This document shows positions 29,560 to 60,710 of a DNA stretch of 64,000 bases, in pieces. Numbering within the stretch: the first letter of the stretch is position 1; the number at the start of each line of letters is the position of its first letter. Location of the stretch: contig OZ024763.1 of NCBI GenBank assembly GCA_964016885.1, positions 12,276,001-12,340,000 on the forward strand, in the 5' to 3' direction. The stretch is from Eledone cirrhosa (taxonomy: Eukaryota). A model generated the notes under the pieces. It searched no databases. It had not been told where the DNA came from and saw nothing but the letters and a program-made list of their open reading frames with translations. The position numbers were made by a program, and so were the translations under genes.

Positions 29560-29900
29560 CATCATTTCATCATTTCATTTTACGTCCACTTTTCCCTGCT
29601 TGCAAGGGTGGGACAGGAACTGATTCTGGCTTGATTTCTACAGCTGGATGCCCTTCCTAACACCAACCTCATTTACAGTCAGTGCTGGGTGCTTTTTTGC
29701 CGTGGCACCTCCACGACCACTTTGCAGTGGAATGATAGGGACCCCAGTCCCTATCATCTCATTTCTACAGCTGAGTAAACTGGAGCAATGTGAAATAAAG
29801 TGTCTTGCTCAAGGAAACAACACATCACCCGGTCTGAGAATGGAACTCACAACCTTTCGATTGCAAGGCCAATGCTCTAACCACTAAGCCATGTGGCTCC
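29560..29900 (-). mobile_element. CORE-type SINE with RTE tail A
   Basis: Full-length match to 52170-52511. Confidence 0.9.
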
Positions 29901-34327: not shown

Positions 34328-37300
34328 GCCTAACAGTGACACTAGAGGTGGGTTTGTGTGGGGCAGCTTGGCCTAACAGTGACACTAGAGGTGGGTTTGT
34401 GTGGGGTAGCTTGGCCTAACAGTGACACTAGAGGTGGGTTTGTGTGGGGCAGCTTGGCCTAATAGTGACACTAGAGGTGGGTTTGTGTGGGGCAGCTTGG
34501 CCTAACAGTGGCACTAGAGGTGTGTTTGTGTGGGGCAGCTTGGCCTAACAGTGGCACTAGAGGTGGGTTTGTGTGGGGCAGCTTGGCCTAACTGTGGCAC
34601 TAGAGGTGGGTTTGTGTGGGGCAGCTTGGCCTAACAGTAGCGCTAGAGGTGGGTTTGTGTGGGGCAGCTTGGCCTAACTGTGGCACTAGAGGTGGGTTTG
34701 TGTGGGGCAGCTTGGCCTAACAGTGGCACTAGAGGTGGGTTTGTGTGGGGCAGCTTGGCCTAACAGTAGCGCTAGAGGTGGGTTTGTGTGGGGCAGCTTG
34801 GCCTAACAGTAGCGCTAGAGGTGGGTTTGTGTGGGGCAGCTTGGCCTAACAGTGGCACTAGAGGTGGGTTTGTGTGGGTAGCTTGGTCTAACTGTGGCAC
34901 TAGAGGTGGGTTTGTGTGGGGCAGCTTGGCCTAATAGTGACACTAGAGGTGGGTTTGTGTGGGGCAGCTTGGCCTAACAGTGGCACTAGAGGTGGGTTTG
35001 TGTGGAGCAGCTTGGCCTAATAGTGACACTAGAGGTGGGTTTGTGTGGGGCAGCTTGGCCTAACAGTGGCACTAGAGGTGGGTTTGTGTGGGGCAGCTTG
35101 GCCTAACAGTGGCACTAGAGGTGGGTTTGTGTGGGGCAGCTTGGCCTAACAGTAGCGCTAGAGGTGGGTTTGTGTGGGGCAGCTTGGCCTAACAGTAGCG
35201 CTAGAGGTGGGTTTGTGTGGGGCAGCTTGGCCTAACAGTGGCACTAGAGGTGGGTTTGTGTGGGGCAGCTTGGTCTAACTGTGGCACTAGAGGTGGGTTT
35301 GTGTGGGGCAGCTTGGCCTAATAGTGACACTAGAGGTGGGTTTGTGTGGGGAAGCCTGGCCTAACAGTGACACTAGAGGTGGGTTTGTGTGGGGCAGCTT
35401 GACCTAACAGTGGCACTAGAGGTGGGTTTGTGTGGGGCAGCTTGACCTAACAGTGGCACTAGAGGTGGGTTTGTGTGGGGAAGCCTGGCCTAACAGTGAC
35501 ACTAGAGGTGGGTTTGTGTGGGGCAGCTTGGCCTAACAGTGGCACTAGAGGTGGGTTTGTGTGGGGCAGCTTGGCCTAACAGTGGCACTAGAGGTGGGTT
35601 TGTGTGGGGCAGCTTGGCCTAACAGTGGCACTAGAGGTGGGTTTGTGTGGGGCAGCTTGGCCTAACAGTGGCACTAGAGGTGGGTTTGTGTGGGGTAGCT
35701 TGGCCTAACAGTGGCACTAGAGGTGGGTTTGTGTGGGGTAGCTTGGCCTAACAGTGGCACTAGAGGTGGGTTTGTGTGGGGCAGCTTGGCCTAACAGTGG
35801 CACTAGAGGTGGGTTTGTGTGGGGCAGCTTGGCCTAACAGTGGCACTAGAGGTGGGTTTGTGTGGGGCAGCTTGGCCTAACAGTGGCACTAGAGGTGGGT
35901 TTGTGTGGGGCAGCTTGGCCTAACAGTGACACTAGAGGTGGGTTTGTGTGGGGCAGCTTGGCCTAACAGTGGCACTAGAGGTGGGTTTGTGTGGGGCAGC
36001 TTGGCCTAACAGTGGCACTAGAGGTGGGTTTGTGTGGGGCAGCTTGGCCTAACAGTGGCACTAGAGGTGGGTTTGTGTGGGGCAGCTTGGCCTAACAGTG
36101 GCACTAGAGGTGGGTTTGTGTGGGGCAGCTTGGCCTAACAGTAGCGCTGGAGGTGGGTTTGTGTGGGGCAGCTTGGCCTAACAGTAGCGCTAGAGGTGGG
36201 TTTGTGTGGGGCAGCTTGGCCTAACAGTGGCACTAGAGGTGGGTTTGTGTGGGGCAGCTTGGCCTAACAGTGGCACTAGAGGTGGGTTTGTGTGGGGTAG
36301 CTTGGCCTAACAGTGGCACTAGAGGTGGGTTTGTGTGGGGTAGCTTGGCCTAACAGTGGCACTAGAGGTGGGTTTGTGTGGGGCAGCTTGGCCTAACAGT
36401 GGCACTAGAGGTGGGTTTGTGTGGGGCAGCTTGGCCTAACAGTGGCACTAGAGGTGGGTTTGTGTGGGGCAGCTTGGCCTAACAGTGGCACTAGAGGTGG
36501 GTTTGTGTGGGGAAGCTTGGCCTAACTGTGGCACTAGAGGTGGGTTTGTGTGGGGCAGCTTGGTCTAACTGTGGCACTAGAGGTGGGTTTGTGTGGGGCA
36601 GCTTGACCTAACAGTGGCACTAGAGGTGGGTTTGTGTGGGGAAGCTTGGTCTAACTGTGACACTAGAGGTGGGTTTGTGTGGGGCAGCTTGGCCTAACTG
36701 TGGCGCGAGAGGTGGGTTTGTGTGGGGAAGCTTGGCCTAACTGTGACACTAGAGGTGGGTTTGTGTGGGGCAGCTTGACCTAACAGTGGCACTAGAGGTG
36801 GGTTTGTGTGGGGAAGCTTGGTCTAACTGTGGCACTAGAGGTGGGTTTGTGTGGGGCAGCTTGGTCTAACTGTGGCACTAGAGGTGGGTTTGTGTGGGGC
36901 AGCTTGGTCTAACTGTGGCACTAGAGGTGGGTTTGTGTGGGGCAGCTTGACCTAACAGTGGCGCGAGAGGTGGGTTTGTGTGGGGAAGCTTGGTCTAACT
37001 GTGACACTAGAGGTGGGTTTGTGTGGGGCAGCTTGACCTAACAGTGGCACTAGAGGTGGGTTTGTGTGGGGAAGCTTGGTCTAACTGTGACACTAGAGGT
37101 GGGTTTGTGTGGGGCAGCTTGACCTAATAGTGGCGCTAGAGGTGGGTTTGTGTGGGGAAGCTTGGCCTAACTGTGGCGTTAGAGGTGGGTTGTGTATGGG
37201 GGAGCTTGGCTTAACTATGGGACTAGAGGTGGGTTTGTGTGGGGAAGCTTGGCTTGTGGAGGCGCTTGGCCTAACTGTGGGGCTAGAGGTGGGTTTGTGA

Positions 37301-37915
37301 GGGGCAGCTTGGCCTAACTGTGGCGTTAGAGGTGGGTTGTGTATGGGGGATCTTGGCTTAACTATGGGACTAGAGGTGGGTTTGTGAGGGGCAGCTTGGC
37401 CTAACTGTGGCGTTAGAGGTGGGTTTTGTATGGGGGATCTTGGCTTAACTATGGGACTAGAGGTGGGTTTGTGAGGGGCAGCTTGGCCTAACTGTGGCGT
37501 TAGAGGTGGGTTGTGTATGGGGGATCTTGGCTTAACTATGGGACTAGAGGTGGGTTTGTGAGGGGTAGCTTGACTTGTGGAGGTGCTTGCCCTAACTGGA
37601 ACTAGAGGTGGGTTTGTGGGGGGCAGCTTGGCCTAACTGTGGCACTAGAGGTGGGTTTGTGGGGGGCAGCTTGGCCTAACTGTGGCGCTAGAGGTGGGTT
37701 TGTGTGGGGGAGCTTGGTCTAACTGTGGCACTAGAGGTGGGTTTGCGTGGAGTAGCTTGGCCTAACTGTGGCACTAGAGGTGGGTTTGTGAGGGGCAGCT
37801 TGGCCTAACTGTGGCACTAGAGGTGGGGGAGCTTGGTCTAACTGTGGCACTAGAGGTGGGTTTGTGAGGAGCAGCTTGGTCTAACTGTGGCACTAGAGCT
37901 GGGTTTGTGTGTGGG
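34328..37915. repeat. 43-bp G-rich minisatellite (~83 copies)
   Basis: Unit gcctaacagtggcactagaggtgggtttgtgtggggcagcttg. Confidence 0.97.
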
Positions 37916-38695: not shown

Positions 38696-38984
38696 TATAA
38701 AGAACACCATTGAAGCTATAACCAACAATCCAGTCATTCTTGAAGTATCTAGCACATTCTGGTTGTACACCCTCCCCTTTTAATTATAAATTAACCCATT
38801 TTAACCCTTTATTGCCATATTTCTAATGAAAGACAGCCTCCTATAAAATGTTTTTTTTTTCCATTACTTCCTTTTTTTACCCTCCCCTGTCCTGTTTCTT
38901 GTGCCTCTCATTCTATTTTCCAATGAAAGACTATCATCTGAAACATTAAAGCTCTTTCCCTAGTATATCTAGTGTTAAAGTAAT

Positions 38985-39429: not shown

Positions 39430-39690
39430 ATGAGGTGTTAGATCTTCATTACTGTCGTGGCTTTGATTCCTGGGTTGTGTGTTGTGTTCTTGGGCAAAAC
39501 ACTTCATTTCACGTTGCTCCAGTATACCCAGCTAAAAATGAGTACCAACAATAGCTGGGGGTTTAACCCTGCGATGGACTAGCGTCCTGTCCAGGGGAGT
39601 CTTGTACTCTCAGTAGCTTCACGCCATGAAACCGGGATAAGCACCAACCAAATAAGCCTTCTGGCTTAAGACAGACTTTAGACTTTAGAG
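39430..39690 (+). mobile_element. Degenerate SINE with a Meta-like domain
   Basis: cttgggcaaaacact core; aaccctgcgatggactagcgtcctgtccagggg..gaaaccgggataagc; (gacttta)2 tail. Confidence 0.65.
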
Positions 39691-39778
39691 ATGTCAACAT
39701 GAATGGACCTGTTATTTTTATCTAAAGACATTTTTTCCATCCCGCCCGTCCCCTCAATCTATTTTATTTCTTATTCTT

Positions 39779-39814
39779 TCTTCTGATGAAGGACTAGCGT
39801 CCGAAACGTTAAGA
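39779..39814 (+). ncRNA. Minimal type I hammerhead ribozyme, intact core (element ~39687-39910)
   Basis: TCTT-CTGATGA-A-GGAC tagc GTCC-GAAA-CG-T-T-AAGA; stem I TCTT/AAGA, stem II 4 bp, palindromic AACGTT stem III. Confidence 0.8.
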
Positions 39815-40027
39815 CCCTCTTCCTGCTATATCAAGTGTTAACCTAATATATACCTGCCATATACTGTACCGATTGTGTTGCTATTTCTGTTTACCTTTTA
39901 CATATATATCATTGTACTGTGGTGTTCCCATGTGTTGTTTTTCCTCATTGACTTTTTGAATCTATGCACACACACATTCACATACACACACATATATATG
40001 TGTGTAAATATATATATATATAACACC

Positions 40028-41969: not shown

Positions 41970-42982
41970 TACATGGAAGTGAAACATGGACACTTTCATC
42001 CAAACAACAAATGCTGCTTCATGGCCTCTACATTTACCTACCTGACATCTGACTTTGAAAGAAATAGATGCCAGCCTCCCACACATATCTGTCATACGTA
42101 AAAGGAGAGTAAGATTTGCTGGCCACTGCCATTGTGCCACATCGGAGGCTGTGTCCCCATTAGTGCTCTGGAAACCACAAGCAGTCACTAATAACAGGGG
42201 ACACAAGCTCTGCCATCTCGATTTGCTGGCCACTGCCATTGTGCCACATCGGAGGCTGTGTCCCCATTAGTGCTCTGGAAACCACAAGCAGTCACTAATA
42301 ACAGGGGACACAAGCTCTCCTATCTCAATTTGCTGGCCACTGCCATTGTGCCACATCGGAGGCTGTGTCCCCATTAGTGCTCTGGAAACCACAAGCAGTC
42401 ACTAATAACAGGGGACACAAGCTCTGCCATCTCGATTTGCTGGCCACTGCCATTGTGCCACATCGGAGGCTGTGTCCCCATTAGTGCTCTGGAAACCACA
42501 AGCAGTCACTAATAACAGGGGACACAAGCTCTCCCATCTCAATTTGCTGGCCACTGCCATTGTGCCACATCAGAGGCTGTGTCCCCATTAGTGCTCTGGA
42601 AACCACAAGCAGTCACTAATAACAGGGGACACAAGCTCTCCCATCTCAATTTGCTGGCCACTGCCATTGTGCCACATCAGAGGCTGTGTCCCCATTAGTG
42701 CTCTGGAAACCACAAGCAGTCACTAATAACAGGGGACACAAGCTCTCCCATCTCAATTTGCTGGCCACTGCCATTGTTCCACATCGGAGGCTGTGTCCCC
42801 ATTAGTGCTCTGGAAACCACAAGCAGTCACTAATAACAGGGGACACAAGCTCTCCCATCTCGATGTCATCTCCAGAGATTCTGGTATTGAAATCCTGGAC
42901 TTGGCAACGGCAATGAACGACAGACCCACCCGGAGATCAATTGTTGAGTCAATGTCGGCTGAGGCTGCCGGACGATGATGAC
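41970..42982 (+). mobile_element. RTE/RTE-X-type LINE 3' fragment with an internal 107-bp x7 tandem expansion
   Basis: IRKRRVRFAGHC..LVLWKP..RG..DVISRDSG..AMNDRPTRR, stop, tgatga tail; array 42114-42862. Confidence 0.85.
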
Positions 42983-56841: not shown

Positions 56842-57199
56842 TATATACACATATACATACATATATACATGTACACATACACACATAAAAAAGCGGAAAC
56901 ATTAACAACCACAACAGCAGCAAGACAAACAACAACAACACTTCTTGGCTCTCCCTGTCCCCCCCCTCCCATGCCACAAACAGCTGCCATATTTGTTTAT
57001 ATGACACAGAAATGGTTTCATTCTTATTGCTGCCATTCTGTCTATATTGGCTATGGAGTGGTAATAATAATGGTATAGGCAGTGGTATAACAGTGGTCTG
57101 TAGTGGTGTGGTGGTACTATGTGGGGTATTATGGTAGGGTGTGTTAGTGTGATGGTATGTAATGGATGTAGTGGAGTGGTATAACAGTGGTGTAGTGGT

Positions 57200-60100
57200 G
57201 TTGGGGTAGTGTGATGGTATGTGATGGTAGTGTTGGTGTGATGGTATGTGATGGTAGTGTTGGTGGTATGTAATGGTAGTGTTGGTGGTATGTAATGGTA
57301 GTGTGATGGTATGTGATGGTAGTGTGATGGTAGTGTTGGTGGTTTTGTGATGGTAGTGTTGGTGTGATGGTATGTGATGGTAGTGTTGGTGGTATGTAAT
57401 GGTAGTGTGATGGTATGTGATGGTAGTGTGATGGTATGTGATGGTATTATGGTAGTGTTGGTGGTAGTGTGATGGTATGTAATGGTAGTGTTTGTGGTAG
57501 TGTGATGGTATGTAATGGTAGTGTTGGTGGTAGTGTGATGGTATTATGGTAGTGTTGGTGGTAGTGTGATGGTATTATGGTAGTGTTGGTGGAAGTGTGA
57601 TGGTATGTAATGGTAGTGTGATGGTATGTAATGGTAGTGTTGGTGGTAGTGTGATGGTATTATGGTAGTGTTGGTGGTAGTGTGATGGTATTATGGTAGT
57701 GTTGGTGGTAGTGTGATGGTATTATGGTAGTGTTGGTGGTAGTGTGATGGTATTATGGTAGTGTTGGTGGTAGTGTGATGGTATTATGGTAGTGTTGGTG
57801 GTAGTGTGATGGTATGTAATGGTAGTGTTGGTGGTAGTGTGATGGTATTATGGTAGTGTTGGTGGTAGTGTGATGGTATTATGGTAGTGTTGGTGGTAGT
57901 GTGATGGTATTATGGTAGTGTTGGTGGTAGTGTGATGGTATTATGGTAGTGTTGGTGGTAGTGTGATGGTAGTGTTGGTGGTAGTGTGATGGTATGTAAT
58001 GGTAGTGTTGGTGGTAGTGTGATGGTATTATGGTAGTGTTGGTGGTAGTGTGATGGTATTATGGTAGTGTTGGTGGTAGTGTGATGGTATTATGGTAGTG
58101 TTGGTGGTAGTGTGATGGTATTATGGTAGTGTTGGTGGTAGTGTGATGGTATTATGGTAGTGTTGGTGGTAGTGTGATGGTATTATGGTAGTGTTGGTGG
58201 TAGTGTGATGGTATTATGGTAGTGTTGGTGGTAGTGTGATGGTATTATGGTAGTGTTGGTGGTAGTGTGATGGTATTATGGTAGTGTTGGTGGTAGTGTG
58301 ATGGTATTATGGTAGTGTTGGTGGTAGTGTGATGGTATTATGGTAGTGTTGGTGGTAGTGTGATGGTATGTAATGGTAGTGTTGGTGGTAGTGTGATGGT
58401 ATGTAATGGTAGTGTTGGTGGTAGTGTGATGGTATTATGGTAGTGTTGGTGGTAGTGTGATGGTATTATGGTAGTGTTGGTGGTAGTGTGATGGTATTAT
58501 GGTAGTGTTGGTGGTAGTGTGATGGTATGTAATGGTAGTGTTGGTGGTAGTGTGATGGTATTATGGTAGTGTTGGTGGTAGTGTGATGGTATTATGGTAG
58601 TGTTGGTGGTAGTGTGATGGTATTATGGTAGTGTTGGTGGTATTATGGTAGTGTTGGTGGTAGTGTGATGGTATGTAATGGTAGTGTTGGTGGTAGTGTG
58701 ATGGTATTATGGTAGTGTTGGTGGTAGTGTGATGGTATTATGGTAGTGTTGGTGGTAGTGTGATGGTATTATGGTAGTGTTGGTGGTAGTGTGATGGTAT
58801 TATGGTAGTGTTGGTGGTAGTGTGATGGTATTATGGTAGTGTTGGTGGTAGTGTGATGGTATTATGGTAGTGTTGGTGGTAGTGTGATGGTATTATGGTA
58901 GTGTTGGTGGTAGTGTGATGGTATTATGGTAGTGTTGGTGGTAGTGTGATGGTATTATGGTAGTGTTGGTGGTAGTGTGATGGTATTATGGTAGTGTTGG
59001 TGGTAGTGTGATGGTATTATGGTAGTGTTGGTGGTAGTGTGATGGTATTATGGTAGTGTTGGTGGTAGTGTGATGGTATTATGGTAGTGTTGGTGGTAGT
59101 GTGATGGTATTATGGTAGTGTTGGTGGTAGTGTGATGGTATTATGGTAGTGTTGGTGGTAGTGTGATGGTATGTAATGGTAGTGTTGGTGGTAGTGTGAT
59201 GGTATTATGGTAGTGTTGGTGGTAGTGTGATGGTATTATGGTAGTGTTGGTGGTAGTGTGATGGTATTATGGTAGTGTTGGTGGTAGTGTGATGGTATTA
59301 TGGTAGTGTTGGTGGTAGTGTGATGGTATTATGGTAGTGTTGGTGGTAGTGTGATGGTATTATGGTAGTGTTGGTGGTAGTGTGATGGTATTATGGTAGT
59401 GTTGGTGGTAGTGTGATGGTATTATGGTAGTGTTGGTGGTAGTGTGATGGTATTATGGTAGTGTTGGTGGTAGTGTGATGGTATTATGGTAGTGTTGGTG
59501 GTAGTGTGATGGTATTATGGTAGTGTTGGTGGTAGTGTGATGGTATTATGGTAGTGTTGGTGGTAGTGTGATGGTATTATGGTAGTGTTGGTGGTAGTGT
59601 GATGGTATAATGGTAGTGTTGGTGGTAGTGTGATGGTATTATGGTAGTGTTGGTGGTAGTGTGATGGTATTATGGTAGTGTTGGTGGTAGTATGATGGTA
59701 TTATGGTAGTGTTGGTGGTAGTGTGATGGTATAATGGTAGTGTTGGTGGTAGTATGATGGTATGTAATGGTAGTGTTGGTGGTAGTGTGATGGTATTATG
59801 GTAGTGTTGGTGGTAGTGTGATGGTATTATGGTAGTGTTGGTGGTAGTGTGATGGTATTATGGTAGTGTTGGTGGTAGTGTGATGGTATTATGGTAGTGT
59901 TGGTGGTAGTGTGATGGTATTATGGTAGTGTTGGTGGTAGTGTGATGGTATTATGGTAGTGTTGGTGGTAGTGTGATGGTATTATGGTAGTGTTGGTGGT
60001 AGTGTGATGGTATGTAATGGTAGTGTTGGTGGTAGTGTGATGGTATTATGGTAGTGTTGGTGGTAGTGTGATGGTATTATGGTAGTGTTGGTGGTAGTGT

Positions 60101-60710
60101 GATGGTATTATGGTAGTGTTGGTGGTAGTGTGATGGTATTATGGTAGTGTTGGTGGTAGTGTGATGGTATAATGGTAGTGTTGGTGGTAGTGTGATGGTA
60201 TTATGGTAGTGTTGGTGGTAGTGTGATGGTATTATGGTAGTGTTGGTGGTAGTATGATGGTATTATGGTAGTGTTGGTGGTAGTGTGATGGTATAATGGT
60301 AGTGTTGGTGGTAGTATGATGGTATGTAATGGTAGTGTTGGTGGTAGTGTGATGGTATTATGGTAGTGTTGGTGGTAGTGTGATGGTATTATGGTAGTGT
60401 TGGTGGTAGTGTGATGGTATTATGGTAGTGTTGGTGGTAGTGTGATGGTATTATGGTAGTGTTGGTGGTAGTGTGATGGTATTATGGTAGTGTTGGTGGT
60501 AGTGTGATGGTATTATGGTAGTGTTGGTGGTAGTGTGATGGTATTATGGTAGTGTTGGTGGTAGTGTGATGGTATGTAATGGTAGTGTTGGTGGTAGTGT
60601 GATGGTATTATGGTAGTGTTGGTGGTAGTGTGATGGTATTATGGTAGTGTTGGTGGTAGTGTGATGGTATTATGGTAGTGTTGGTGGTAGTGTGATGGTA
60701 TAATGGTAGT
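57200..60710. repeat. 31-bp minisatellite ggtattatggtagtgttggtggtagtgtgat (~105 copies)
   Basis: Highly homogeneous; 32-bp tatgtaat variant interspersed. Confidence 0.97.

Follow-up and report, generated by a model that had tools for sequence, protein, structure and literature searches.

The class of hammerhead motif considered here was published in 2014. In the accessible part of PMC4209133, the hallmarks of the minimal hammerheads carried by Penelope-like elements (PLEs) are given as an extra nucleotide, a G10.1-C11.1 pair and a palindrome, with no cleavage of the monomer and low cleavage of the dimer. The Neptune-clade EN+ PLEs, according to the available sections of Craig et al. 2021 (PMC8557442), have one ORF with a reverse transcriptase (RT) followed by a C-terminal GIY-YIG domain that holds a CxxC, a CX2-5CxxC linker, partial tandem pseudo-LTRs (pLTRs), a hammerhead near the 3' end and a targeting of microsatellites; the same sections call the function of PLE hammerheads unclear. 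For Poseidon_Ac of Anolis, the accessible account (Frangieh et al. 2024, PMC11167929) reports insertion at AT-rich DNA from an RNA that spans the pLTR junction and mostly serves as template in its uncut form. The hammerhead of that account overlaps the start codon, is protein-assisted and is not needed for insertion in vitro, and RNA-seq showed no ends at the cut. Animal non-LTR retrozymes, in the available portions of PMC7229834 and 10.64898/2026.07.22.740005, are short non-coding hammerhead units related to pLTRs, arranged as tandem repeats and mostly with canonical hammerheads.

The window, which is the whole 64,000-nucleotide stretch of Eledone cirrhosa DNA that was analysed, contains two intact motifs of the minimal kind, 16.6 kb apart. 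Both read TCTT-CTGANGA-A-GGAC-TAGC-GTCC-GAAA-CG-T-T/AAGA (the slash marks the predicted cut), and the sequence bears out the first-pass annotation in that N7 (T vs C) is their sole difference. The features of the window that belong to this family of repeats are as follows.

39687..39902, + strand: very probably the 5'-truncated 3' end (pseudo-LTR part of the 3' UTR) of a putatively Neptune-like Penelope-like element, family A
39687..39702, + strand: 5' arm of a predicted long-range RNA helix, partner 39873-39888; the 5'-end hotspot falls at the outer edge of this arm
39779..39814, + strand: minimal type I hammerhead motif, predicted cut after 39810
39779-82 with 39811-14, + strand: stem I of this hammerhead, 4 bp
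39783-89, + strand: core of this hammerhead, followed by the extra A at 39790
39791-94 with 39799-802, + strand: stem II of this hammerhead, 4 bp
39803-06, + strand: GAAA of this hammerhead, with the palindrome ACGT at 39806-09 and N17=U at 39810
39903..39910, + strand: short (TA)n tract, 3' junction of the 39687 element
56223..56520, + strand: second family-A copy, 5'-truncated but longer than the first, with a long (TA)n tract at its end
56390-56425, + strand: intact hammerhead of the second copy, predicted cut after 56421
45686..45835, + strand: older diverged copy with a decayed core near 45707, where G12 and G16.2 read A
7710..7803, + strand: older diverged copy, core near 7734, with C3 lost and G12 reading A
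38905..38984, + strand: older, heavily decayed copy with a broken core near 38920

The two hammerheads have the CUGANGA and GAAA-N-UH core with helices I and II, a G10.1-C11.1 pair and a palindrome at 15.2-16.2. C3 lies at 39783 and 56394, which puts the predicted cuts where the annotation had placed them (after 39810 and 56421). The extra A after A9 and the palindromic stem III, both pointed out in the annotation, are present and match the features listed in the accessible part of PMC4209133. The motif differs from known PLE minimal hammerheads in that N17 is U, and its stem II has 4 bp against the 7–8 bp of the Schistosoma families. The descriptor search that the annotation had proposed for type I hammerheads, with stems I and II and the palindromic stem III obligatory, finds exactly these two matches in the window (39779 and 56390) and none in 50 local shuffles, while a looser core pattern gives 10 matches against 0.75 expected. 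The Rfam hammerhead models stay below their gathering score throughout the window and leave both motifs unreported, so that they are no help for the minimal form. Single-strand folding of the motif gives z-scores of about -0.4 to -0.6, which are uninformative for a dimer ribozyme; in folding predictions, neither the monomer nor the homodimer of family A has the active fold as its minimum.

By self-BLAST, there are five related copies in the window, two intact and three decayed, rather than the four counted at first pass; the additional one is the decayed copy at 38905..38984. The two intact elements align over 229 columns at 89.5%. A length of about 220 bp, proposed for both, holds for the 39687 copy but not for the copy at 56.3 kb, which is about 300 bp long (56223-56520). 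Their end at a TA-rich microsatellite, estimated at about 100 nt downstream, is confirmed: the distance from the cut to the common 3' end of family A is 92 nt, and a microsatellite stands there in 88 of 91 unselected family-A copies from the genome. In all likelihood, the copies in the window are dead passengers.

Several other repeats occur in the window. The 39687 copy adjoins the tail of another dispersed repeat (39470-39686), which ends in a short tandem AGACTTT and matches 29758-29830, 52238-52312 and 55631-55703 by self-BLAST. Two near-identical partial tRNA-like matches on the minus strand (18654-18711 and 24358-24415) score just above the Rfam tRNA cut-off and are not called by ARAGORN; they are probably the heads of a tRNA-derived SINE. 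Long minisatellite arrays are found at 34328-37914, 57068-60710, 42113-42864 and 1878-2755, and the self-BLAST offsets indicate periods of about 43, 92, 107 and 48 or 96 bp.

A 224-bp query gave 2064 first-look candidates in the 3.0 Gb genome, among which the 39 matches scored besides the query are 93–95% identical. The 25-mer just past the cut has 3633 exact matches genome-wide, which sets the size of family A at 3,633 copies or more. In the best 30 genome matches, one 3' end is common to all 30 and the 5' ends are ragged. At least four of these 30 extend upstream into coding DNA, and there the adjacent RT/GIY-YIG ORF that the annotation suggested searching for is found. In 10-kb stretches, the upstream frame has the order reverse transcriptase, CX4CxxC linker, C-terminal GIY-YIG domain holding CxxC. 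The RT part carries the PLE-type motifs IKPADKGG, LDITSLYT, GVAMGTRMGPNYANLF and YGRYIDD, the linker reads CSRSRCNTC (of the CX2-5CxxC type), and in the GIY-YIG part a CCHH motif has its two cysteines between GIY and YIG (VVYALRCSLCKSLYIG), with conserved histidines after them. Pfam matches to RVT_1 (E=2e-4) and GIY-YIG (E=1.2e-3) both fall short of the curated cut-offs. A homolog search returned 287 animal and metagenome proteins, with up to 49% identity over 99% of the query; those named come from coral, gastropods and cartilaginous fish, and all are uncharacterised. RT and GIY-YIG are both present in intact homologs, and stand in the same order in the frameshifted family-A copies. The longest frames among the 20 long family-A loci, 687 and 579 residues, are frameshifted, and none of these loci has an intact ORF.

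Locus L034 displays the layout of a partial pLTR, 5' UTR, ORF and pLTR, a unit of ~3.7 kb that follows a partial copy of its own 3' end. A partial pLTR also lies upstream in most of the 30 loci selected by their 5' end, and partial tandem pLTRs holding the hammerhead are a feature of both family A and its sister, family B (see below). The ~220-bp element is thus very probably the 5'-truncated 3' UTR/pLTR end of an EN+ PLE of the Neptune-like kind. The family numbers thousands of copies, and its insertion at (TA)n probably proceeds by target-primed reverse transcription; its hammerhead is likely selected only in masters and is predicted to cut only as a dimer or with the element's protein. Of the two origins offered at first pass, "PLE-derived or retrozyme", the first is borne out by the upstream frame and the pLTR layout, and the second does not suit the window copies, which are solo and not tandem. 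Family A shares with the Neptune clade each of the features given above from the available sections of PMC8557442, although the likeness is one of features and not of a tree, and no intact ORF stands behind it among the 20 long loci. The Neptune-like placement follows the linker and the microsatellite targeting as described rather than an RT tree, and should be read as provisional, given that Nematis also has a reduced linker.

Family A is one more PLE family with a known motif, and the 5'-end results given below are unpublished side results. No description of family A was found in the literature that could be searched, most subscription papers lying outside it. Two further traits of the family are of note. 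At L006, L007, L022 and L171, family-A copies are often arranged in close inverted pairs, a few hundred bases apart. Close inverted pairs have been described for PLE insertions. About 200 nt upstream of the cut, the region L007:1366-1440 has a pyrimidine tract and then CAG/GTAGA, a candidate splice site in the 3' UTR. PLEs are known to keep introns in their pLTRs.

If cut RNA were the template of insertion, 5' ends would stop at or just after the cut. The first 91 anchored family-A copies on one contig were used to look at this, with one unreadable upstream and 90 retained. Run-off at the cut was rejected for family A, as only one of the 90 readable copies starts there, and the same is true of only one of the 30 family-A loci selected by their 5' end. 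Genome-wide, an 8-nt extension of the 25-mer across the cut keeps 2957 of the 3633 matches, against 3074 of 3633 for an equal extension downstream, a loss of 3.8%. Ends downstream of +25 are represented by four incidental copies, too few for a comparable profile.

The ends of family A gather instead further upstream, where 29 of the 55 copies still at risk stop 120–139 nt before the cut. The rate in this hotspot is 3.5% per nt (29 ends in 823 copy-nt) vs 0.27% over the first 100 nt (22 in 8107), a 13-fold difference. The 39687 copy begins 124 nt upstream of its predicted cut, inside the hotspot, which explains the 220-bp size class. In sequencing contigs from two runs of one sample, possibly the assembled individual, loose ends near -131 were seen in 32 and 39 contigs and weakly support the hotspot; such contigs yielded no usable ends for family B. 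The helix predicted between 39687-39702 and 39873-39888 has pair probabilities of 0.82–1.0; the folding z-score of the whole 39687 element is only -0.23, and two other upstream windows pair with the same helix arm about equally well. The hotspot may be a transcription start site in the pLTR, which is as good a reading as a helix-protected end.

A mechanism for family A can be proposed along these lines. Reverse transcription would set out from the junction of pLTR and (TA)n, 92 nt past the cut, and, as the ribozyme is complete in the inserted copies, its template would mostly be uncut or re-joined RNA. Roughly half of those that reach that far would then stop 120–139 nt upstream of the cut, at a possible RNA 5' end (either the pLTR start site or the helix-protected end), and a stop there would give the ~220-bp size class of the window. 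Uncut RNA as the main template fits what the accessible account of Poseidon_Ac (PMC11167929) reports, and insertion at AT-rich DNA and an RNA spanning the pLTR junction are alike in the two. The position of the hammerhead differs: in the Poseidon_Ac of that account it overlaps the start codon, and here it precedes the next unit's first ATG by about 350 nt.

Family B (L075-L082, L181-L308) is a younger sister PLE family, with about 70% RT identity to family A and 4343 matches to its tail 29-mer. In the 3' UTR, the two families have only a 27-nt hammerhead stretch in common; with this stretch masked, the best score of A vs B is 21, against a shuffle mean of 19. Stem II is GGAC/GTCC in A vs GGGC/GCCC in B, a compensatory change from A-U to G-C. 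The family-B hammerhead has N17 = C, giving a GUC triplet vs GUU in A, and a stem I of 2 bp, while the distance from the cut to (TA)n is 90–92 nt in both families alike. At L076, a family-B locus, identical hammerheads flank the ORF on both sides; its open frame has 938 codons, with the endonuclease part out of frame.

The 5' ends of family B show a step at the predicted cut. Among the first 30 copies anchored at +13, four begin between +3 and +13 and none in the next 250 nt. Among 101 copies anchored at +53, a sample that overlaps the +13 one and is not independent of it, 20 have their start in +1..+52 (for 10 it is in +1..+18), and of the other 81, 3 start in -52..-1 (Fisher p=0.0013, or 0.036 for 18-nt windows). 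Genome-wide, 5' junctions flanked by (TA)4 number 116 at +20..+38, 155 at +1..+19 and 31 at -22..-4; they were counted on the forward strand only, because reverse counts are redundant, with a single upstream window and with positions -3..-1 left out. After adjustment for motif retention (69, 57 and 67 of 78) and for copies at risk, the ends fall 5.2-fold across the cut and rise 1.7-fold before it. No report of such 5'-end profiles was found in the literature searched, which left out most subscription papers.

There is a somewhat better than even chance that the step has a cause other than cleavage: a transcription start near +1, an arrest of RT at the C-rich tract or the folded ribozyme, or an excess of very short insertions. 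The ends are spread over +1 to +48 with no spike at +1, the family-B stem I has only 2 bp, the hotspot of family A is itself an instance of a PLE end that can be unrelated to the cut, and cleavage is, in the accessible text of PMC11167929, dispensable in vitro and leaves no RNA-seq ends at the cut. Against this, the rate of ends climbs toward the cut, drops about 5-fold and stays low, a shape that a smooth length effect does not give. TA-like microhomology sits in the low window, so that junction bias runs the opposite way, and both B subtypes contribute short copies.

A trace of in vivo hammerhead cleavage is a tentative reading of the step, at somewhat less than even odds. About a sixth of family-B insertions would then come from self-cleaved RNA, and family A, whose GUU triplet and 6-nt palindrome could trap A14 and U17, would be copied uncut and stop 120–139 nt upstream. 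The family-B pattern of ends fits a mixture of cut and uncut templates. In folding predictions, the B homodimer keeps stem II and pairs the palindrome while the A homodimer misfolds, a contrast that lends weak backing to cleavage in B. The step also sets the inserted copies of family B apart from Poseidon_Ac, for which the available text of PMC11167929 gives no RNA ends at the cut.

Short units are a further class of family-A copy. In 14 of the 30 loci chosen by their 5' UTR (13 places), the first 250–383 nt are joined directly to a 3' piece that starts 74–140 nt before the cut and holds the last 170–240 nt. Such units occur at L061/L065, L046, L050, L054-L056, L058, L066, L067, L069, L070, L072 and L074; at one of the 13 places, three units form an array whose period is near 500–513 bp. 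The junctions are clustered but different, and family B has five 5'-to-3' joins of this kind in 101 copies. Splicing is an unlikely source, given that the junctions differ and that the common left break has no GT after it. The short units may have been copied from short transcripts, by template jumps or from circles, which would agree with the derivation of retrozymes from pLTRs in the accessible part of 10.64898/2026.07.22.740005.

These units bear on the proposal that the ~220-bp element amplifies itself as a non-autonomous unit (SINE-like, or a non-LTR retrozyme), with a short RNA that the PLE mobilises in trans. The pronounced mode of size near 220 nt would suit such a unit, as would the predicted helix joining both element ends, the short 5'-plus-3' units with their one array, and the derivation of retrozymes from pLTRs in what is available of 10.64898/2026.07.22.740005. 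It is nevertheless unlikely: the 5' ends scatter over some 20 nt and make up an unbroken series reaching between a few nt and more than 400 nt upstream, the junctions of the short units are many and varied rather than the one of a single master, and a multi-unit array is seen at only one of 13 places. Each standing alone as a truncation with the minimal motif, the window copies contain no head-to-tail tandem hammerhead units, unlike the tandem, mostly canonical retrozymes described; the likeness lies in short non-coding hammerhead units related to pLTRs and in the one three-unit family-A array elsewhere in the genome. Truncation of a Neptune-like PLE remains the preferred account of the window copies.

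Other hammerhead repeats were encountered in the loci collected, 637 kb in all, in which four further types of motif with a palindromic stem III (CGCG, CTAG, GTAC and CAATTG) occur. At L079:84-1158, three tandem hammerheads with a spacing of 311 bp and a fourth on the opposite strand form a retrozyme-like array of another family, with CTGATGA, a stem II of ATTCT/AGAAT and the palindrome CGCG. A further abundant type, with a stem I of 6–7 bp, a stem II of AGCT/AGCT and the palindrome CTAG, is found at L080 (about 5700-6800), L061, L063, L088, L105 and L171, and is in places repeated at a spacing of about 490–540 bp. The GTAC type occurs at L058, L071 and L078, and the CAATTG type at L154.

The check put forward at first pass, for excess conservation of core nucleotides or stem covariation among genomic copies, came out differently at two levels. 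Between families A and B it is positive, in the retention of the 27-nt motif and the compensatory change in stem II. Among inserted copies there is no significant excess: in 68 inserted family-A copies, 16 of 670 non-CpG core sites are off the majority base vs 245 of 7041 in the flanks (p=0.15), which is what dead copies should show. The inserted family-A copies are in neutral decay. The core is kept in 54 of 86 unselected copies, with 25 of the 86 fully intact, and the intactness of the window copies therefore reflects their youth. That the window copies are functional host ribozymes processing a host transcript is highly improbable: the intact core of two of them speaks for it, and the frequency of kept cores in unselected copies, the lack of a significant difference between core and flanks, and an active fold that is not the predicted minimum speak against it.

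If the family-B step is indeed a trace of cleavage, the mapping of 5' ends of inserted copies would let ribozyme activity in living germ lines be read cheaply from genome sequence alone. Two sister families that differ in their triplet would then serve as a built-in control, and as a natural contrast for the role of the PLE hammerhead. The short 5'-plus-3' units, for their part, suggest a possible route from a PLE to retrozyme-like arrays within one family.
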